Of a stretch of 64,000 bases of DNA, positions 3,652 to 64,000 are shown piece after piece. The DNA comes from Candidatus Moraniibacteriota bacterium. Lineage in GTDB: Bacteria > Patescibacteriota > Minisyncoccia > Moranbacterales > UBA1568. The notes below the pieces were generated by a model, which was not told the DNA's origin, did not search any database, and saw only the letters and a list, made by a program, of their open reading frames with translations. A program made the translations under genes and the position numbers. Each line of letters begins with the position of its first letter. Positions within the stretch are counted from its first letter, which is position 1. The stretch lies in NCBI GenBank assembly GCA_963743885.1, contig CAVURJ010000001.1, forward strand, positions 140,949-204,948, written 5' to 3'.

Positions 3652-4647
3652 CTAGCCTCTCTTCAACGACGGGAAAACGCTTTTCAAGAGGAGGAGTGAG
3701 ACGTCGGTGCCCCTGCCTTCCACGAGCGGTTTTTCGTTCATGTTGTAGAACGGATGAGGATTGATCTCGAGGATCACATAAGGAGCCTTCGGAGAAGCGA
3801 TGTTTTCAGCGAGGAAGTCGAGGCCGCCGTAGGTGAGGCCTACAGCCTCCATAGCTGCTACCGCCGCCTTCTTGAGAGATGGATGCATTTCTCTCGTCGT
3901 GTCGATTGCTCTGCCGCCATCGGACATGTTGAGATTGTTCCTGAATTTGAAGAAGTGACCTTTTTTAAGGATGGAGTCGAGCGTCAAGCCCGCCTCTTTA
4001 AGGGACGCATTCGCCGTATCGTCAAGCTTGATTTCGAATCCCTTGAGACGATTCTTATTGAAGGCCTTGATGAGCTTATTAATGGAGGTCTTCCCATCTC
4101 CAGTGACCCCAGCAGGAATCTTCTGCACGCAGGAGATGACTTTCCCACCAAATACGAGTACGCGGTATTCGTTCCCGACGAACATCTCTTCGACGATGAT
4201 GGATATATTCTTCCGTTTCCCGTAAGCGATGAGGGCGTGTTGGGTAGCCGCGCGGAGCTCTTTTTCAGAGCGGATGTTCCAAGTGACGCCTTTGGCGAGC
4301 GACCCATCAAGCGGCTTCGCGATGAGCGGGTAGCGGAGCTTGGCAGATCGGACTTCACGGATGGCTTCAGTATGCGACCGGGCAGTGATGCCGCGCGGTG
4401 TGCTGATGCCAATCTCTGTGAGGACAGCTTTTGTCAACGTCTTGCGTTTCGTGAAATTCCCCATATTCCTCTTGATGGGGAGGTTGTTCTTGTAGCAGAA
4501 AACAGTTTTCCCTTTGTAGGAGAGCTTGGTGAAGCGGATATCTCCATCGTGCATCACGGAGACGGAGATTCCGAGTTCGACGGCTTTTTTGAGGAAAGAG
4601 CGGAAGCCGCCGTGCTTGATCGCCTTGATGTATTCGTTCATGTCCAT
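3652..4647 (-). CDS. ATP-grasp family ligase (RimK/cyanophycin-synthetase-N-like)
   Basis: 331 aa; ATP-grasp hallmarks (IAKPLDGSLAKGV, EEMFVGNEYRVLVFGGKV, LDFLAENIASPKAPYVILEINPHP); 6-bp gap to next gene. Confidence 0.65.
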   Translation of the reverse strand: MDMNEYIKAIKHGGFRSFLKKAVELGISVSVMHDGDIRFTKLSYKGKTVFCYKNNLPIKRNMGNFTKRKTLTKAVLTEIGISTPRGITARSHTEAIREVRSAKLRYPLIAKPLDGSLAKGVTWNIRSEKELRAATQHALIAYGKRKNISIIVEEMFVGNEYRVLVFGGKVISCVQKIPAGVTGDGKTSINKLIKAFNKNRLKGFEIKLDDTANASLKEAGLTLDSILKKGHFFKFRNNLNMSDGGRAIDTTREMHPSLKKAAVAAMEAVGLTYGGLDFLAENIASPKAPYVILEINPHPFYNMNEKPLVEGRGTDVSLLLLKSVFPSLKRG

Positions 4648-4653
4648 ATGCGG

Positions 4654-6054
4654 CTAGATTGATTTATTAACGTCGATGAGGAACTTCCTGAGATGCTTTC
4701 GTCCGATGATAGCTCGGTATTCGAGGTGCGACCGATCGATGACGGAGACTTTGGCGGGAATAGCGAAGGTGTCGATGATGAGCGAAACGAGCACTTTTGG
4801 CCTATAGGATGTGCCGTGCGAGGATTTTACGGGGACGGTATCCGCAAGATCTGGAATGCCGGCAAAGAGTGATTCACGCTCTAACTTTGACATCTCAGTC
4901 ATGATGTCACGGCCGCCGATCTTTTCCTCGAATGTTCGTATTGCTTCTCCGAAACCGAGTTCGCGGGCGAGTTCGGTATCGATGGAAGTGGAGTCGGCGC
5001 CGGTGTCGATCTTGGCTTCAACTTCGATCTCTTTGCCGCCCTTGCCGATGAGCTTCACTTTCTCAACAGCACCGATGACGCGCTTGCCGGAGAGTTCCTC
5101 GACCGCCTCTTCGATCTCACCACCGAAGAGGTTTTGGCCGACGCGGATGCCACGATCAGTGGTCTTGATCTTGAGCCCGGCGACGCGATCGAGCCGGCCG
5201 CGGAGGCCGGAGAGGTTGGCCAGCTGGATGGAGAGGCCTGGGCGAGCGTTGAGCTCGAGGATGACCGGGCCACGCTCGCGGTCGATGGCGATGTCAGCAC
5301 CGAGGAAGCCAAGTCCTGAAAGATTCTGTGACTCGACGGACATGCGGAGGATCTCTTTCCAATAAGGGATGCGAATGCCGGAGAGGGCGAGGCGGGCGCC
5401 AGGGACGTACTCGATGATGTTGCCCTTGCCGAGGATGGCGGTCGTCGTCGTGCCGGTCGCGAGGTCGATGCCGACGCCGATAGCTCCCTGCTGGAGGTTG
5501 GCCTTGCCGTCGGAAGCGCGGGTCGGGAGGCGGAGCATCGCCATGACCGGGACGCGGTTGAAGACGATGACACGGATATCAGGAATGCCTTTGTAGGCGT
5601 AGGGCTTGAAGAGTTTGAGGAGCGTGAGCCGCTCTTCAAAGAAGGCAATATCAGGGATATTGGAAAGCGAGAAGGACCCGTCGAGGATGTTTTGGATATG
5701 CGTCTTCAAGTCCTCGATGGTGATGATGGAACCGTCGGCCTTGACCCAGGCGTCGGGTCGGTTCTTCTTCCTCGCGTAGACGACCAGGATGCCTTCGCCG
5801 CCAAAGCCGCGGTTCGGCTTGAGGGCGAAGCTTGCCGGCAGGGCGGTCCAGTCGAAATGCTCGAGCTCTTCGCGGGTGCTGATTTTAGCGATGAGACCAG
5901 GCACACCCAAGCCAGCCTTCTTCAGGGTGCGCTTGGAGAAGAGCTTGTTGTCGGCGAGCTCTCGGCTCCGTTTGCGATTGAGCGGGCGCACGTAGTCGAG
6001 GTTGCGCGCGTTCATGCCGAGCACCGAGCGGCTTTTTCGGAAGAAATCGAACAT
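4654..6054 (-). CDS. Alpha-L-glutamate ligase-like (RimK-related) ATP-grasp protein fused to C-terminal retropepsin-like (DUF785/RimB-like) domain
   Basis: N-term VLGMNARNLDYV...LADNKL resembles the alpha-L-glutamate-ligase-related family; C-term EVEAKIDTGADSTSID has the D-T/S-G-A aspartic-protease signature. Confidence 0.7.
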   Translation of the reverse strand: MFDFFRKSRSVLGMNARNLDYVRPLNRKRSRELADNKLFSKRTLKKAGLGVPGLIAKISTREELEHFDWTALPASFALKPNRGFGGEGILVVYARKKNRPDAWVKADGSIITIEDLKTHIQNILDGSFSLSNIPDIAFFEERLTLLKLFKPYAYKGIPDIRVIVFNRVPVMAMLRLPTRASDGKANLQQGAIGVGIDLATGTTTTAILGKGNIIEYVPGARLALSGIRIPYWKEILRMSVESQNLSGLGFLGADIAIDRERGPVILELNARPGLSIQLANLSGLRGRLDRVAGLKIKTTDRGIRVGQNLFGGEIEEAVEELSGKRVIGAVEKVKLIGKGGKEIEVEAKIDTGADSTSIDTELARELGFGEAIRTFEEKIGGRDIMTEMSKLERESLFAGIPDLADTVPVKSSHGTSYRPKVLVSLIIDTFAIPAKVSVIDRSHLEYRAIIGRKHLRKFLIDVNKSI

Positions 6055-6096
6055 ACGATGTGGGAGCTGAAAAGAATGGACTGTAGGAAGATGCAG

Positions 6097-6756
6097 TTAC
6101 TGCATGTTGCGGAAGACCTTGCGGAAGCGCAGGTATTCTGAGAGACGGAGGCCCGTCCATTTGCCGAGCGAAAAGTTGACTGCGAAGGTGAGGAGGACAG
6201 CCCACGGGTATTCGAGAATGAGCGCAGTGAGTGCGTCCCAGCTGATGAGGAAGTATCCTGCGACGGAGATGATGAGTGTTTCGAGTGCGAGGAGCGAGGC
6301 GACTTTGTTGCCCTTCTCGATCTGGGTCGCGACAAATTTTTCCGCGAGCGTAATCATGATGAGGAGCGGGAAGATGTCGATGCCGGCGAGGCCGGTGCGA
6401 TGAAATGATCCGCCAACGACCAGGATGCCGAGGATGGAAAGCGAAACGATAGAGAGCGTGATGGCAACGCGCGGAAGATAGAGCAACCGGAAGTATTTCA
6501 GGATGTAGCGCGAGATCATGCCGACCAGGATGACCGAGAGGAAGATCGCGATGCCGTACTTGAGTCCGTTCGGGTCGAAGGCGATGAGCGCAAAGGTGAT
6601 GATGGACGGTGTGTAGATGCCGAAGGCCTTGATGCCGACGACCTGGCGGAAGAAAGCGACGAGCGTCGCGACGATCGGCAGCATGAGAAGGAGCGCGACC
6701 GTTTCGAGCGGCACACCCTGTTCGACGAAATAGGCGATGAGAGGATGGTATTGCAT
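6097..6756 (-). CDS. Polytopic membrane protein (6-7 TM), 7TM partner of ATP-grasp ligase operon
   Basis: 219 aa, almost entirely hydrophobic helices; first gene of co-directional operon. Confidence 0.6.
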   Translation of the reverse strand: MQYHPLIAYFVEQGVPLETVALLLMLPIVATLVAFFRQVVGIKAFGIYTPSIITFALIAFDPNGLKYGIAIFLSVILVGMISRYILKYFRLLYLPRVAITLSIVSLSILGILVVGGSFHRTGLAGIDIFPLLIMITLAEKFVATQIEKGNKVASLLALETLIISVAGYFLISWDALTALILEYPWAVLLTFAVNFSLGKWTGLRLSEYLRFRKVFRNMQ

Positions 6757-6842
6757 ACTACGAGAAAGTTATTCCGTTAACGAGTTCACGAGTTAACGGG
6801 TTGGATGATAGTTTTGAACGCGTGAACGCGTTAACTGGTCAA

Positions 6843-7331
6843 CTATTTTTTTATCAGTTCCATTTTTCGGCGGCTGGCGTGGCAGACGGCGAGTGCGAGA
6901 GCGTCGGCAGCATCGTCCGGCTTCGGGATGCTCGTGAGCTTCAGGATATTCTTGACCATGAGCTGTACTTGGGCCTTGTCGGCGCGGCCGTAATTGGTGA
7001 GTGCTTGTTTGACTTCTAATGGAGTGTAACCAGCTATTCTAACACCAAAACGCTCCAAAGTCAAGAGTATGACGCCGCGGGATTGAGCCACGGAGATGAC
7101 GGTTTTCTGGTTGTTATAGAAGAAGAGCTCCTCAACTGCTGCTTCTTCTGGCGAAAATTGCTTAATAAGGGCCTCGATATCGTTGGCTATTTCAGCCAGG
7201 CGCTTCTCGGCGGGAAGGTCTTTGGAGGTGGAAATATGCCCGAAACTGACGGAAGAGACTTTCCCCCCGTCTGATTCGATGACGCCCCAGCCGACCGTCG
7301 CCGTGCCGGGATCGATACCAAGAATCCTCAT
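6843..7331 (-). CDS. ruvC: Holliday junction resolvase RuvC
   Basis: MRILGIDPGTATVGWGVIE N-terminus, 162 aa. Confidence 0.9.
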   Translation of the reverse strand: MRILGIDPGTATVGWGVIESDGGKVSSVSFGHISTSKDLPAEKRLAEIANDIEALIKQFSPEEAAVEELFFYNNQKTVISVAQSRGVILLTLERFGVRIAGYTPLEVKQALTNYGRADKAQVQLMVKNILKLTSIPKPDDAADALALAVCHASRRKMELIKK

Positions 7332-7371
7332 GTTTTTGCTAGCAATCTGATGAAGCGAGCGTAGCTATAAG

Positions 7372-8088
7372 CTAGGCGAGGTTGTCCCACACGGTCTGGA
7401 CGTCCTGGTGGTCTTCGAGGATTTCTTTGAGCTTCTCGTAGCTTTCGAGATCCTTGTCGTTCAGGGAGACCGTCTGTGTCGGCATATAGCCGAGCTCGGC
7501 GGATTCTGGAGCGATGTCTTTACCTTCGAAGTAAGCGCGGACAGCCTGGAGATCTTCCGGCTTGGTGATGACGAGGAAAACCTCTTCTTCGACGCGGAAG
7601 TCATCAGCCCCGGATTCGATCGTCTCCATCTCGAGCGTTTCGGCGGAGTGTTTGTCGAGCGAGAAGACGATGATGCCACATCGATGGAACATGAAAGAGA
7701 CAGACCCGGACGGAACGAACTTACCGTTGTTCTTCGTGAGAAGTGACTTCACTTCGCTGACGGTTCGGTTCTTGTTGTCGGTCAGTCCTTCGATAAGGAG
7801 TGCGACCTGGCCGGGGCCGTAAGCTTCGTAGACGACCTCTTCGAACTGTGCGCCATCTTTGCCCTCACCACTGCCGGCCTTGATGGCGCGCTCGATATTG
7901 TCTTTGGGCATGTTGTAGCTCCGGGCGTTGTCGATCGCGAGGCGAAGTTTGAAGTTCATCTCGGGGTCAGCCCCTTCGCGCGCGGCGATAGTGATGAGCC
8001 GGCCGAATTTGGTGAAGACGGCGGCGCGTTTGTTATCCTGTGCTTCTTTACGGTGCTTGATTCCGGACCACTTGTTATGTCCTGACAT
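7372..8088 (-). CDS. yebC: YebC/PmpR family DNA-binding regulator
   Basis: MSGHNKWSGIKHRKEAQDNKR...AIKAGSG signature; 238 aa. Confidence 0.9.
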   Translation of the reverse strand: MSGHNKWSGIKHRKEAQDNKRAAVFTKFGRLITIAAREGADPEMNFKLRLAIDNARSYNMPKDNIERAIKAGSGEGKDGAQFEEVVYEAYGPGQVALLIEGLTDNKNRTVSEVKSLLTKNNGKFVPSGSVSFMFHRCGIIVFSLDKHSAETLEMETIESGADDFRVEEEVFLVITKPEDLQAVRAYFEGKDIAPESAELGYMPTQTVSLNDKDLESYEKLKEILEDHQDVQTVWDNLA

Positions 8089-8310
8089 AGTATTATATCG
8101 TCTCGGCTGTCTGGCGCATTCCTTTGCCAGAACCTTACGGTGCGCGACACCGTATCCTACGGATACGCCTTACGGCGCTCCGCGGTTCTTTCGTGGACTG
8201 CATCCAGCCAACCAAGGCTCGGATTCCTGGAGATAATCGGTACTTTTTCGCTCTGTAACGAAGGAATTCTAGCCGGGAAAACAGAAAAAATCAACCCCTG
8301 CCAATAAGTA

Positions 8311-38048: not shown

Positions 38049-38135
38049 GGAAAGGTGGCCGAGTGGTTGAAGGTACTTGCTTGGAAAGCAAGCGTAGGGG
38101 AAACCCTACCGAGGGTTCGAATCCCTCCCTTTCCG
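38049..38135 (+). tRNA. tRNA-Ser (anticodon GGA), long variable arm, no encoded CCA
   Basis: GGAAAGG/CCTTTCC acceptor, GCCGAGTGGTTGAAGG D-arm, anticodon loop ttGGAaa, GAGGGTTCGAATCCCTC T-arm. Confidence 0.85.
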
Positions 38136-59521: not shown

Positions 59522-60055
59522 ATGCGCTCCCAAGCGACCGAACAACTTTTTCTCGAGGTCTATGATGAGCATGCTGATGCTATCTATCGTTTTTGCTATT
59601 TCAAGCTGTTCGACAAGGAGAAGGCGGAAGAGCTGACACAGGAGGCTTTCATGCGGACGTGGGAGTACCTCGCTTCCGGCAAGGAGGTAGATAACCTCCG
59701 CGCGTTCGTCTACCGCGTGGCGCGCAACAGCATCGTCGATTATTTCCGCAAGAAGAAAGAGCTCTCGCTTGATGAGCTTCATGAGCAGGGCTTCGATGCT
59801 TCGATTGAAGATGCATCCCGCTGGGAGAATATCATCGATGGCGCCGACGCCATCCAGGCAATCCGGCTTCTGGATGAGAAGTACCGTGAGGCGCTCCTTC
59901 TGCGGCATGTCGACGGGATGGCGGTCAAGGAGATCGCTCTCCTGTGCGGAGAGACGGAAAACGCCATCTCGGTGCGGCTGCACCGGGGGCTCAAGCAGCT
60001 CAAGGAGGTCCTGCGGCCGGTACCCCGTAAGGAAAGCCGTCCCGGAACGTTGTAA
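59522..60055 (+). CDS. ECF-type sigma-70 family RNA polymerase sigma factor
   Basis: Region 2 (FMRTWEYL, VYRVARNSIVDYFRKK) and region 4 (AVKEIALLCGETENAISVRLHRGLKQLK). Confidence 0.8.
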   Translation: MRSQATEQLFLEVYDEHADAIYRFCYFKLFDKEKAEELTQEAFMRTWEYLASGKEVDNLRAFVYRVARNSIVDYFRKKKELSLDELHEQGFDASIEDASRWENIIDGADAIQAIRLLDEKYREALLLRHVDGMAVKEIALLCGETENAISVRLHRGLKQLKEVLRPVPRKESRPGTL

Positions 60056-60057
60056 CT

Positions 60058-61047
60058 GTGTTGTTATCAGGCCGTATTACTATGGATGAGGGATTTTTTA
60101 TACAAATCGTGAAGAAGGCTGGTGAAATGAGGCTTTCTCCCGAGAAGAAGGCCGCGTTCCGCCAGGAGCTCGAGCTAGCGATGGCGGTGCAGCCGCTGCC
60201 TCGCCGCGAATCAGTTGTCTTTGCTGTGCCGGATTGGCTTCGCGCCCATGGGTTGGCCTTCGCCTGCTCGATGGCTGGTGTCGTCGTCATCGTTTCCGGG
60301 ACAGGTGTCAGCTTGGCGGCCGAGCAGTCGCTTCCGGGTGATCGGCTCTATCCAGTGAAGACAGAAGTGAATGAGCGGTTGAAAGGAGCCTTTTTGCTAA
60401 CGCCTGAAGCGAAGATCACTTGGGAGATGGAGCGGGTGGAACGTCGCCTCACTGAAGCGGATGAGCTTTCTTCTGAGGGCCGGCTAGCTGACGATGTCCG
60501 CTCCATGATCGAGGATGATGCGACTGAACATGCTGACCGGGCCGAAGAGCTCGCTTCGGATGATGAGAAGGGGCATGTCGAAGAGCAGATCAAGGAGATG
60601 CTTGAGAGCCGGACGCGGGTCAAAGCGTCCTTCGAGAAGCGCAAGATAATCATCTCGGAGCGCGAGGAGGGCGAGCACGATGAGGAGAGCGAGCCATATG
60701 ATGACGAGGAGAATGATGAACGCGAACATCGCGGGTCTGAGGAAGAGAGCGATGATCAGCGGACCGCCTCTGTGAAGAGATCAGTGACAGGCGCCTCAGG
60801 GGTGACTGTCAGATCGGCCAGCGATAAGCGTGACGATAAGCATGATGAGGAGAAGCCGCCTACGAATGAGTCGTCTTTCGGTACGGCGGAGAAGAGTGGT
60901 GAGATTGAGAGCCATGCGTCATCAGGCGATTCTGATAAGGATGGAGGAGGAGATTCTGCGGATAGTGGAGATAAGGATGGGCATGGCGATGAGGATCAGG
61001 GGAACGAGAGTTCTGATGGATCCGGCAGCGATACGAGGAACGAGTAA
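60058..61047 (+). CDS. Putative anti-sigma factor-like membrane protein with acidic low-complexity C-terminus
   Basis: Immediately follows ECF sigma gene; single TM (LAFACSMAGVVVIVSG); alternative start 60082. Confidence 0.45.
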   Translation: MLLSGRITMDEGFFIQIVKKAGEMRLSPEKKAAFRQELELAMAVQPLPRRESVVFAVPDWLRAHGLAFACSMAGVVVIVSGTGVSLAAEQSLPGDRLYPVKTEVNERLKGAFLLTPEAKITWEMERVERRLTEADELSSEGRLADDVRSMIEDDATEHADRAEELASDDEKGHVEEQIKEMLESRTRVKASFEKRKIIISEREEGEHDEESEPYDDEENDEREHRGSEEESDDQRTASVKRSVTGASGVTVRSASDKRDDKHDEEKPPTNESSFGTAEKSGEIESHASSGDSDKDGGGDSADSGDKDGHGDEDQGNESSDGSGSDTRNE

Positions 61048-61096: not shown

Positions 61097-62734
61097 TCAT
61101 TTGAAGAGCATCACCGCGATGATAGTGCCATAGCAGGTGATGAGTCCGAGGACGATACCAGGAAGCCGGCGGAATGTGAAGAAAGATTGCTCATCAGCGT
61201 TTCCTTGCTGGAGCGCCCAGAAGACAAGCGTACCGAAGAGGAAGGCGAAGAGGAAGAGCGATCGAGCGCTTAGGATGATCGGACTGGCCATGAAGAGGAT
61301 GAAGAACAGGCTGCCGATTAGGAGCTTGGCGATCGGTGCACCGAGTAGCACGGGAAGCGTATAGACATGGTCGAGTGCATCGCCCGCGATGTCTTTGAAA
61401 TCCTTGAGCGGGATGCAGAGCGCGTAGCCGATGAAGAGAAAGGAAAGAATCGGCAGGGGCAGCGTGTGGAGGCTATGTTCCGGTGAGACCGTGAGGAATC
61501 CCGTGATGAGCACGAGGAGTCCGGCGAAGGCGGCGAGGAGCGTGGCGATGCCGGGGAGGCGTTTGAGACGGAAGGGTGGAGCCGAATAGAGCCAGGCAAG
61601 CGCCTGATAGGCGAGCATGATGAGGAGCGCCGTGAAGCTCATGATGCCGGCGAAGAGGAGCGAAGCGATGAAGAAGAGGACCCCGAACGCCTTATAATGG
61701 TCGAGCGGGATAGTGTCTTTGATGAGCGGTCGCGTCGCGTTGGTCTTTTCGTCTATGCGTATGTCGTAGATGTCATTAGCGATCACCGAGGCGAGCCAGG
61801 CGCTTTCGACGGCCGCGAGGAGGACGAGGGCTCCTGTGATATGGAAGAAATCGATTTTAAAATCGGCGCCGGCGAAGACGGAAGCGAATCCCATGCCGAG
61901 AAAGAGTAATCCGCCATGCCAGATCATCTGCGGGAGCCTCGCGTTCTTCCAGAGAGCGATGAAATACCCGCGACATCCGCTCCAGAGAAGCTGGCCGACG
62001 AGCAGGACGGAGAGGGCGGCATAGATGATGCTCATCTTGGTGTTCAGGACACTGCGGAAATCGGAGAGGTCCCTCGCGAAGATATGTTCCGGTGTGAGGA
62101 AGAGTGCGGCGACGTCGGTTGCACTGATAGCGAGAAGACTCTTTTGGAAGACGAGGATACCGAGCGTAATCCATGACGGAAAGGTACCGAGTACGAAAAG
62201 TATGGCATAGGCCAAGAGAGCGACCAGGAGCGCCTTGCCGGGCTTCTCTGATTTGATGTAGGCATAAAGACCGAGGAGGATGGTCACGATGACGACTTCG
62301 ACGCGCACGCCATAGGTGATGCCGATGTCCGGCGTGTCGCCGAAGAGCGTGAAGAATCGGAGGATGAGCCCGCGGAGCCCATCGAATTCATAGAAGCTCC
62401 AAAAGTAGGATCCTTGGAAGATGAGGGTATCGATGATGGGTGGCGTGAGGATGATGAGGAAACCGAAGAGGAGGACATTTGCAGCTTTCCGGAAGTCGAC
62501 ACGGCCGGCGAAGCGGACGAGCGGCAGGATGAGAAGGAACGAGCAGAGGAAGAAGAGGAAGGTATGGGTGAACTCGAAGAAGTAGAAGAAGAACGAACGC
62601 GCTTCGAAGAGTCCGAGCGTATTCTCGACGGTGAGCCGGGCGATGATGAGCGCGAAAAACGCCGCGACGAACGTCGGTAGCGTGAGGGGTGTGTCTTCGA
62701 TGTTTTTGATGACGGAATCGACGAATCGACGCAT
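61097..62734 (-). CDS. Polytopic membrane protein with C-terminal UbiA-family prenyltransferase domain
   Basis: NDIYDIRIDEKTNATRPL matches UbiA NDxxDxxxD...RPL signature; start re-assigned to Met148 of the 61097-63175 ORF (MRRFVDSV), the N-terminal 147 aa being non-coding-like and overlapping a divergent gene. Confidence 0.6.
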   Translation of the reverse strand: MRRFVDSVIKNIEDTPLTLPTFVAAFFALIIARLTVENTLGLFEARSFFFYFFEFTHTFLFFLCSFLLILPLVRFAGRVDFRKAANVLLFGFLIILTPPIIDTLIFQGSYFWSFYEFDGLRGLILRFFTLFGDTPDIGITYGVRVEVVIVTILLGLYAYIKSEKPGKALLVALLAYAILFVLGTFPSWITLGILVFQKSLLAISATDVAALFLTPEHIFARDLSDFRSVLNTKMSIIYAALSVLLVGQLLWSGCRGYFIALWKNARLPQMIWHGGLLFLGMGFASVFAGADFKIDFFHITGALVLLAAVESAWLASVIANDIYDIRIDEKTNATRPLIKDTIPLDHYKAFGVLFFIASLLFAGIMSFTALLIMLAYQALAWLYSAPPFRLKRLPGIATLLAAFAGLLVLITGFLTVSPEHSLHTLPLPILSFLFIGYALCIPLKDFKDIAGDALDHVYTLPVLLGAPIAKLLIGSLFFILFMASPIILSARSLFLFAFLFGTLVFWALQQGNADEQSFFTFRRLPGIVLGLITCYGTIIAVMLFK

Positions 62735-62911
62735 ATGTATGGCTATAATCCATTGAATATATGCTCTTATAGTAGCATCGCTTGGCGGTCTGGACAAAAT
62801 CGTTATTTTCTGGTATAAAGGACAGTTCGCATCAGATAGGGGAAATCCCTGAAAATGCGATATGGGTAGTTCGTGAACAATTTCTTTTGCAGTTTTTTCG
62901 AGGAGAAGACC

Positions 62912-64000
62912 ATGGCCGGAAAAACGAAGTATTCTGAGCACGTTCTCATGTTTGCTGTACAGCAGTTGCGTATGTTGGGAATCTCGATTTCTATCATCGC
63001 AGAGTTGCTTGATGTTGCGATCGGGACGGTCCAGAAGCGCGTCAAGGATATCGTGCCGCAGACAGGCAGTGTATTCGCGGCCGCATGGGAACGGTTCTGC
63101 AAGCTCGAGGAGGAGGCTATTTCGCATAGGGAGCCTTCTACACAGGAATTGACTCTCTATACTGCGCTCCGCCAATACCTGGATATCGATTCATGTCTAG
63201 TGGTAGTGGATCAGGTACTGCTTACGATGCGGGAGCTTATGCTGCCGCATGTACCGGAGAGCGAGATGGGCTATTTCGACCTTCTGGATAAAGCGTTCGA
63301 GTTGTCGGAAGAAAAAATCTCACTGCCCAAGGTGGGTGATCGACAGGTCAGCGAGCCTATCGATTACCTGATTCTCTATGCTCCGAAGCAGCCGGTGTCG
63401 ATGAAGGACATCATGGCGGCATTCCGGACCGGTATCGCGGATTTGCGCCGTGTCCAGGTAGCTGTGCCGTGGCCGGAGAATGCTAGGCAGGTCGTGGAAG
63501 ACACTCTCCTCACGCTCCCTTTGCGTGAGAGCAAGGTGCTAGCCGATCGTTTCGGGCTTTACGGCGGACGCAAGAAGACGTTTCGGGAAATAGGCCAGGA
63601 CTTCGGCCTGACGTCCGAGAGCATCCACCGGATCGAGTCTATCGCGATTCGGAAACTGCTGCGTTCGCCTTGCTGGGAATTATTGGCGCCATTGGTTGCG
63701 GATTTCAGCGTGGTACTCGAGGAGCGTGATTCCTTGAAGCAGAAGAATGGCGAGCTCGAAAGCGCGATGATGAGCTGCCGCTCCCTGATTGCGAAGCTGA
63801 CCCGGGGAATGAGCGAGGCGGGCATGTCCGTGGACAAGTCGGTCAAGGTCGACCCGGTCCTTCTCCGATCGATAGACAGTCTCGATCTCACGATCCGTTC
63901 GTCGAACTGCCTTGTGGCTGAGAACATCCGTTGCATCGGTCAATTAGTGCAGCGCAGCGAATTCCAGCTTCTCAGGTTGCCGAATCTCGGACGCAAGAGT
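62912..64000 (+). CDS. Protein combining sigma-70 region-4-like HTH and RNA polymerase alpha C-terminal domain (alpha-CTD), 3' end outside window
   Basis: SD aggag; [42 protein letters not shown] (sigma r4.2-like) and [50 protein letters not shown] (near-identical in pattern to E. coli alpha-CTD); open to window end. Confidence 0.6.

Follow-up and report, generated by a model that had tools for sequence, protein, structure and literature searches.

Domain architecture of P0001

The 64,000-nucleotide stretch of a Candidatus Moraniibacteriota genome analysed here (the window) ends within a gene whose product combines a helix-turn-helix (HTH) of the sigma-70 region 4 (r4) type with the C-terminal domain of RNA polymerase's alpha subunit (alpha-CTD). 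Translation starts at the ATG at 62912 on the plus strand and the open frame continues past the window end; the peptide quoted in a preliminary description of the locus is the exact translation of 62912–63999 (+). The full open reading frame (ORF), which that description had sought beyond the window, was obtained: an identical protein of 396 amino acids (aa), referred to as P0001, is recorded from two contigs, of 652,564 bp and 8.7 kb, and its last approximately 34 residues fall beyond base 64000, with a predicted gene end at approximately 64102. As described earlier, the gene is divergent from a UbiA-like gene and is preceded by a strong Shine-Dalgarno sequence (Table 1).

P0001 consists, in this order, of a three-helix HTH, an all-alpha domain of approximately 140 aa, r4, a long helical linker and the alpha-CTD. 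Pfam searches with the truncated protein recovered both the near-canonical alpha-CTD and the sigma-70 region 4.2-like HTH upstream of it that had been read from the sequence, namely RNA_pol_A_CTD (PF03118) from residue 314 (E = 6.2e-14, 51.9 bits versus a cut-off of 23.8) and Sigma70_r4 (PF04545) at residues 199–249 (E = 9.9e-11, 41.4 bits versus a cut-off of 24.1), and the alpha-CTD match thus survived profile search. The E. coli RpoA motif given in the preliminary description was accurate: when compared with the Protein Data Bank (PDB) by phmmer, the alpha-CTD scored 78–83 bits against RpoA of Pseudomonas and E. coli, at approximately 60% identity. The r4 segment matched region 4 of sigmaA/RpoD at 30–41 bits in the same search, and RpoD models were its best matches in NCBIfam. 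An AlphaFold2 model of P0001, built from a 28-sequence family alignment, had a mean predicted local distance difference test (pLDDT) score of 89.2, and in Foldseek its alpha-CTD showed the same fold as E. coli alpha-CTD structures, with a root-mean-square deviation (rmsd) of 0.6–0.8 Å over approximately 70 residues and a template modelling (TM) score of approximately 0.9 (best match 3n4m_C, rmsd 0.6 Å, TM 0.94, 61% identity). The helix-hairpin-helix motifs and the complete '265 determinant' of RpoA are retained (see below). The r4 module is basic (isoelectric point 9.5) and the alpha-CTD mildly so (8.0). The presence of the two domains is real and far beyond chance.

The picture of two modules given in the preliminary description holds for r4 and the alpha-CTD; it overlooked a conserved N-terminal HTH and a helical domain, which together with r4 form the core of the family described below. 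Over the N-terminal HTH, individual members matched Sigma70_r4_2, HTH_23 and HTH_7 of Pfam weakly (in P0001 at residues 20–45), and a family profile matched the HTH repeats of PDB entry 8vd6 (E = 1e-11) and the CRISPR-repeat-binding protein 2lvs (E = 1e-8). The middle domain matched no Pfam family (residues 50–190) and carries the conserved motifs W59, G120-Y121, L124-L125, F129, P158, R180 and W187-P188. A separate AlphaFold2 model of the N-terminal half (residues 1–194) was of similar quality (pLDDT 90.5, predicted TM score 0.83), and its best Foldseek matches had E-values of 0.6 in the PDB (TetR-like) and 0.2 in BFVD, with TM scores of at most 0.24; no relative of the middle domain was thus detected in Pfam, the PDB or BFVD, and no fold could be assigned to it. 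The linker, a helix of 38 residues in P0001, differs among members in both length and sequence (alignment A1, columns 401–500).

In line with the earlier view that the N-terminal approximately 200 aa are unlike the RpoA N-terminal domain or sigma region 2, neither was found there in Pfam, NCBIfam or Foldseek. P0001 carries neither of the two alpha N-terminal families (PF01000, RNA_pol_A_bac; PF01193, RNA_pol_L) nor sigma region 2 (PF04542), and the N-terminal half searched alone in Foldseek returned no sigma or alpha structure. The RpoA equivalog models matched residues 306–362 only, far below their cut-offs (TIGR02027, 44.9 versus 227.8 bits; NF003513, 64.7 versus 302 bits), and the sigma-70 model TIGR02937 matched the r4 part only (29.4 versus 42.9 bits). 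The alpha N-terminal domain serves dimerisation and beta/beta' assembly, and sigma region 2 serves core binding, -10 recognition and DNA melting; lacking both, P0001 cannot assemble the core enzyme or melt DNA. It is hardly credible, then, that P0001 is the RpoA of this organism with an aberrant N-terminus, which the preliminary description had named as the outcome that would overturn it, or a true alternative sigma factor with an acquired alpha-CTD, even though some observations point that way. Its alpha-CTD is closer to genuine RpoA alpha-CTDs than to those of most family members, and the window contains no rpoA (nor a second copy of any of the three P0001 modules). In addition, T. aquaticus sigmaA aligned to the full model over 319 columns in Foldseek (E = 6e-4), but with a TM score of 0.14–0.17; a cryptic sigma2/sigma3 in the N-terminal half was considered on this basis and rejected, as the match vanished when that half was searched alone. 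The genes flanking P0001 code for the UbiA-family protein and a Bro-N domain protein and not for S13-S11-S4 or L17 of the ribosomal-protein/rpoA operon, and tandem paralogues as well as a paralogue without alpha-CTD exist, which likewise argues against an RpoA or sigma factor. The alpha-CTD of P0001 is approximately 70% identical to those of genuine metagenome RpoA proteins compared with a mean identity of 45% among the family alpha-CTDs, a pattern compatible with slow divergence and equally with recent replacement by an rpoA-derived domain; it allows no conclusion because similarity to P0001 was the criterion by which the compared sequences had been chosen.

Table 1. Positions of P0001, its domains, upstream elements and neighbours, and of related genes on other contigs.
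Feature	Sequence	Position	Strand	Basis
Coding sequence, residues 1-363 of 396	window	62912..64000	+	translation, identical to recorded P0001
Shine-Dalgarno sequence GAGGAG, 6 nt before ATG	window	62900..62905	+	read from sequence
Candidate sigma70-type promoter: TGGACA (62791-62796), 17-nt spacer, TGG-TATAAA (62811-62819)	window	62791..62819	+	read from sequence, prediction
Imperfect inverted repeat ATTTTCTGGTAT / ATCCCTGAAAAT, 12-nt arms (62805-62816 and 62845-62856), 83% complementary, 28 nt apart	window	62805..62856		repeat scan
N-terminal three-helix HTH (residues 9-43)	window	62936..63040	+	AlphaFold2 helices 9-21, 26-33, 37-43, pLDDT 96-98
All-alpha middle domain (residues 54-182)	window	63071..63457	+	aligned across 38 members; AlphaFold2 model
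Sigma-70 region 4 (4.1 + 4.2 HTH; residues 191-256)	window	63482..63679	+	Pfam PF04545
Long single helix (residues 265-302), r4-to-alpha-CTD linker	window	63704..63817	+	AlphaFold2
Alpha-CTD (residues 308-387; window holds up to residue 363)	window	63833..64000	+	Pfam PF03118, phmmer, Foldseek
UbiA-family gene, 545 aa, divergent upstream neighbour	window	61097-62734	-	ORF and neighbourhood reading
Bro-N domain protein, 290 aa, convergent downstream neighbour	beyond window end	~64248-65120	-	recorded neighbourhood of P0001
Tandem paralogues	L169	7465-8661 and 8779-9972	+	
Tandem paralogues downstream of L25: 283 aa, alpha-CTD-less, then alpha-CTD-bearing	L174	5758-6609, then 6817-8001	+	
Short r4-alpha-CTD protein, 191 aa	L003 (genuine phage contig)	7920-8495	+	
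Short r4-alpha-CTD protein	L020 (IMG/VR viral contig)	4259-4852		
Short r4-alpha-CTD protein	L026 (IMG/VR viral contig)	5427-6476		
Short r4-alpha-CTD protein	L016 (IMG/VR viral contig)	7482-8189		

A family of collinear proteins and the wider spread of its modules

P0001 belongs to an undescribed, chromosomal protein family of small-genome, uncultivated bacteria and is not the one-off that the preliminary description implied. At least 39 clusters at 50% identity have the collinear architecture. The relatives came from searching 1.84 billion cluster representatives exhaustively with HMMER: three local profile hidden Markov models, for the N-terminal half, r4 and the alpha-CTD, matched 38 of the top 150 representatives in the same order, save that P0054, one of the 38, lacks the alpha-CTD. 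P0293 is a further member beyond these 38. All modules of P0001 align collinearly over the full length (alignments A1 and A2): P0003 (395 aa) aligned over residues 4–391 with 38% identity (E = 1e-57), P0004 over residues 15–394, and P0011 and P0018 are likewise full-length collinear relatives. Only the exhaustive search brought the family to light, as word-indexed protein searches returned P0001 itself, P0077 and P0293 alone. The output of a profile search was dominated by RpoA, a scan of genome collections gave one unrelated r4 match, and the alpha-CTD ORFs in 80 loci from a metagenome scan were mostly genuine RpoA (approximately 325–340 aa) and shorter cut ORFs, none of them in a family context. 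Cluster look-ups gave no protein name for P0001 or its relatives, and no description of free-standing alpha-CTD or r4–alpha-CTD proteins was found in the searchable literature. Within this recurrent family P0001 is a divergent member; each of the parts is familiar, whereas the way they are combined, and the biology behind it, is uncharacterised.

Members differ in ways that point to a core and to variable parts. Directly upstream of P0004 a 283-aa paralogue is encoded that possesses r4 and the N-terminal half and lacks the alpha-CTD, which shows that HTH, helical domain and r4 constitute the core and that the alpha-CTD is an optional, added DNA-affinity module. The two tandem paralogues at the P0116 locus are 58% identical overall and near-identical over residues 1–75, and their middle domains are the most divergent part.

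Besides that of P0001, neighbourhoods were recovered for nine family proteins, corresponding to eight distinct contexts (P0043 and P0157 share one), and all of them look chromosomal and ordinary. P0069 (L167) is encoded between EF-P and a class II tRNA synthetase, S18, SSB and S6, and P0154 follows SSB, S18, EF-P, GyrB and L25, a gene order shared by P0004 (L174). The tandem paralogues at the P0116 locus (L169) lie just upstream of rplJ-rplL (L10-L7/L12), P0043 and P0157 are found on hypothetical-rich groundwater metagenome contigs and are followed by a coupled 130-aa ORF, and P0074, P0077 and P0293 are surrounded by miscellaneous genes (SWIB, FtsX, LexA, DUF4365). No partner gene is conserved across these neighbourhoods, as expected for a regulator. 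Three members from different clusters (L167, L174 and the P0154 contig) lie near the same set of translation genes (S6/SSB/S18, EF-P, L25, GyrB), an adjacency which is suggestive and could be chance in genomes this small.

The combination of r4 and alpha-CTD recurs outside the family, in other architectures and in a phage. Among the other top hits of the exhaustive search were proteins with 2–12 tandem alpha-CTDs (P0002 has 12 in 1031 aa), a large group in which 2–4 alpha-CTDs precede a Sigma70_r4 domain, significant in Pfam, and an extended C-terminal region, proteins combining the alpha-CTD with Sel1 repeats, a ResIII/Helicase_C helicase with alpha-CTDs, and P0025, in which two alpha-CTDs are joined to pieces of the beta (Rpb2_6) and beta' (Rpb1_1) subunits of RNA polymerase. 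Proteins with these architectures include P0002, P0007, P0013, P0017, P0020, P0008, P0035 and P0025. Relatives of the alpha-CTD are encoded in 115 stretches of IMG/VR viral contigs. The loci examined numbered 82, of which 80 were from IMG/VR: small stand-alone alpha-CTD proteins (approximately 110–250 aa) were present in 75 (L004–L082, with the match near position 8001) and short r4–alpha-CTD proteins in four. One of the latter, of 191 aa, is encoded among early/regulatory genes of a genuine phage contig (L003) that carries tail, endolysin, Erf and O-like replication genes. Taken with the family itself, the many multi-alpha-CTD proteins and stand-alone proteins of phage suggest that, as a DNA-binding module, the alpha-CTD is mobile and reaches well outside RpoA.

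These phage proteins, together with the downstream neighbour of P0001, bear on the question whether the gene is a host-takeover factor derived from a phage or another mobile element and residing on a prophage or island, given that the Bro-N domain is typical of phage and mobile-element regulators. We consider such an origin quite improbable, because the full architecture from N-terminal HTH to alpha-CTD was found in none of the 80 IMG/VR viral loci nor in annotated phage genomes, the N-terminal half had no match in any annotated phage, the eight contexts other than that of P0001 are all chromosomal with housekeeping genes, and the G+C content of the region (0.538) matches that of the window. 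Searches of PHROGs, PADLOC, annotated phages and prophages likewise gave no full-length match to P0001 and similarity at the level of r4 only, the r4 segment matching phrog_351 (sigma factor) and MzaA weakly.

DNA-contact residues and a proposed mode of action

RNA polymerase reads DNA upstream of the -10 element with two modules, the alpha-CTD and region 4 of sigma, and to our knowledge nearly all work on them has treated them as components of the enzyme. The residues through which they contact DNA were compared across the family (residue n of E. coli alpha corresponds to P0001 residue n+64, and residue n of sigma70 to residue n-349). All six DNA-binding residues of the '265 determinant' have their equivalents in P0001, R329, N332, C333, G360, K362 and S363 corresponding to R265, N268, C269, G296, K298 and S299 of alpha, and they are nearly invariant in the family (R265 in 37, N268 in 31, C269 in 28, G296 in 38, K298 in 33 and S299 in 33 of 38 sequences). 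The 261 and 287 determinants are partly kept in P0001 (D258 as D, D259 as S, E261 as D, V287 as F). In r4.2, the family consensus is the RpoD, that is, the primary-sigma sequence, with R586 conserved in 33/39, Q589 in 30/39 and R588 in 28/39 sequences; since R584, E585, R586, R588 and Q589 are all kept exactly in 14 of 38 members, this is a consensus and not a universal feature. L598 is invariant (39/39), and the equivalents of F563, I565 and L607 are conserved.

We propose that P0001 is a stand-alone, DNA-binding transcription regulator which would recognise composite sites consisting of a hexamer and an A/T tract, a reading to which we give about an even chance. It builds on what the analysis shows, namely which domains are present and how they fold, that residues contacting DNA are conserved, that the domains for assembly and melting are missing, that the genes stand singly in chromosomal contexts, and how paralogues have diversified. 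According to this model, the r4 HTH would read a hexamer in the major groove, the N-terminal HTH possibly doing so too or reading a second element, and the tethered alpha-CTD would read the neighbouring A/T-rich minor groove, so that a single chain would copy the side-by-side arrangement of alpha-CTD and region 4 on UP-element/-35 DNA seen in PDB entry 3N97. The protein would in this way occupy composite sites resembling promoter-upstream DNA without RNA polymerase, and would act mainly by occlusion of or competition for such DNA, or by re-shaping promoter DNA, with the middle domain as the variable part that would bind a partner or a signal.

In the ternary complex that alpha-CTD and region 4 of sigma form with UP/-35 DNA (3N97, chains of which were matched in Foldseek), here taken as a model of how P0001 may work, the same two modules reside on two subunits of the holoenzyme, whereas in P0001 they are fused, r4 preceding the alpha-CTD, independently of the enzyme. 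Relative to RpoA, the alpha-CTD is not attached to the alpha N-terminal dimerisation and assembly domain, and its tether is a segment of approximately 55 residues including the 38-residue helix instead of the short flexible linker of RpoA. Like the primary sigma factors RpoD and SigA, P0001 has the 4.1 helix and the 4.2 HTH, but it lacks regions 1.2, 2 and 3, and the residues at the positions that contact the -35 element, activators and alpha are altered. With one-component regulators of the TetR type and with LuxR/GerE HTH regulators it shares HTH modules and an all-helical domain that does not bind DNA, encoded by a single gene; P0001 has, however, no significant sequence or fold match to the TetR family (E = 0.6 or worse, TM approximately 0.2), and we know of no TetR or LuxR/GerE regulator with an alpha-CTD.

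Several observations weigh against the proposed regulator. The residues of P0001 at the r4.2 positions are S235, E236, S237, H239 and R240, so that the residues reading the -35 element are replaced (R584S, R586S, R588H, Q589R), and its closest relatives likewise lack the RpoD pattern. The hexamer, if bound through r4, is therefore probably not TTGACA or a canonical -35 element; of the 'unusual UP-element/-35-binding transcription factor' put forward in the preliminary description, the fusion stands, the role as transcription factor is a prediction, and binding of the -35 element is doubtful for this protein. The positions contacting activators and alpha are also changed in P0001 (K593I, R599L, R603C). 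At UP-proximal/-35 promoters (3N97) the acidic '261 determinant' of alpha touches R603 of sigma, and a maintained contact between alpha-CTD and r4 predicts that the two covary; no covariation was seen in the family, each often being conserved (Fisher p = 0.70), and the contact is thus not supported. Upstream of eight family genes no shared operator was found, but only ordinary -35/-10-like promoters. Finally, the alpha-CTD is also a platform for protein interactions and sigma r4 also docks on the beta-flap tip; the hydrophobic residues for flap docking are conserved, but they also form the core of the domain, and P0001 may bind RNA polymerase.

This last point leads to a different role, that of an RNA polymerase-associated factor whose r4 would sit on the tip helix of the beta flap and either compete there with region 4 of the resident sigma or take its place, while the alpha-CTD would serve as an additional reader of UP elements; the protein would then modulate the promoter preference of the holoenzyme or inhibit it in the manner of an anti-sigma factor, and would not bind DNA as a free protein. 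The primary-sigma type of r4, with L598 invariant, the equivalents of F563, I565 and L607 conserved and RpoD as best NCBIfam match, is consistent with this role, as is the location of several members beside operons related to translation and transcription (L10-L7/L12, L25, S6-SSB-S18, EF-P). As these hydrophobic residues belong to the domain core too, however, they do not discriminate, and the conservation of DNA-contact residues in both modules would be needless for a pure flap binder. We therefore regard the association with RNA polymerase as possible but unlikely.

With three putative DNA-binding modules in a single polypeptide that includes a long connecting helix, P0001 could also be an architectural or nucleoid-associated protein, which would bridge or bend A/T-rich DNA with low specificity and might dimerise through the long helix. 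The alpha-CTD senses the shape of A-tract DNA and not its base sequence, and the Foldseek matches included PDB entry 9zum, the Caulobacter alpha-CTD on AT-rich DNA. The recognition-helix residues, however, differ between paralogues and between clades, a pattern typical of specific regulators, and an architectural function appears rather improbable to us.

If P0001 and its relatives are stand-alone regulators, this widespread family implies a class of proteins able to address promoter-upstream DNA in trans, which may matter especially in reduced genomes that are poor in conventional transcription factors. In a more speculative extension, which we think has a small chance of being right, the family would reproduce in soluble form the upstream half of the holoenzyme–promoter interface and would recognise promoters of the UP/-35 type in trans and gate RNA polymerase at the strong housekeeping promoters of ribosomal-protein and rRNA genes, acting as a global regulator of growth and dormancy in bacteria with reduced genomes of the candidate phyla radiation (CPR) kind, and phages would use minimal r4–alpha-CTD versions to redirect host transcription. 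A set for comparison is at hand in the full-length members, the natural paralogue without alpha-CTD and the 191-aa mini-version of the phage.

Upstream region and surroundings of the gene

The intergenic region between the divergent UbiA-family and P0001 genes comprises 177 bp with a G+C content of 0.40. The candidate promoter of P0001 is absent from the list of a consensus scanner because the last base of its -10 hexamer is A, which the stricter rule of the scanner does not allow; comparable promoters of the TTGACA type are present upstream of homologues. The imperfect inverted repeat in this region overlaps the candidate -10 region of the P0001 promoter, and in each of its arms C(T/A)GG comes after an A/T tract. 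The repeat thus resembles the composite site that the regulator model predicts and could be an operator or a chance occurrence, as two-copy short repeats frequently arise by chance; it is not conserved upstream of homologues, and we treat it as a lead only.

At 545 aa the UbiA-family protein is well above the typical length of UbiA prenyltransferases (approximately 300 aa), and its mechanically defined ORF reaches 63175 because there is no stop codon in between. Further upstream, the window encodes a sigma factor of the extracytoplasmic function (ECF) type with Sigma70_r2 and r4_2 (59522–60055, +), followed by a DUF5667 protein (60082–61047, +) whose C-terminal half is very acidic and of low complexity (D/E/S/G-rich); the two genes look like a pair of sigma factor and anti-sigma-like protein. 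The gene content of the window also includes RuvABC, PolA and type IV pilus genes; taken with the 652-kb contig and the groundwater origin of relatives, it suggests a CPR/Patescibacteria-like host. The window's single Rfam match is a tRNA at 38049–38135. The GC skew is positive in nearly all 2-kb bins of positions 1–64000, and the cumulative skew climbs steadily.

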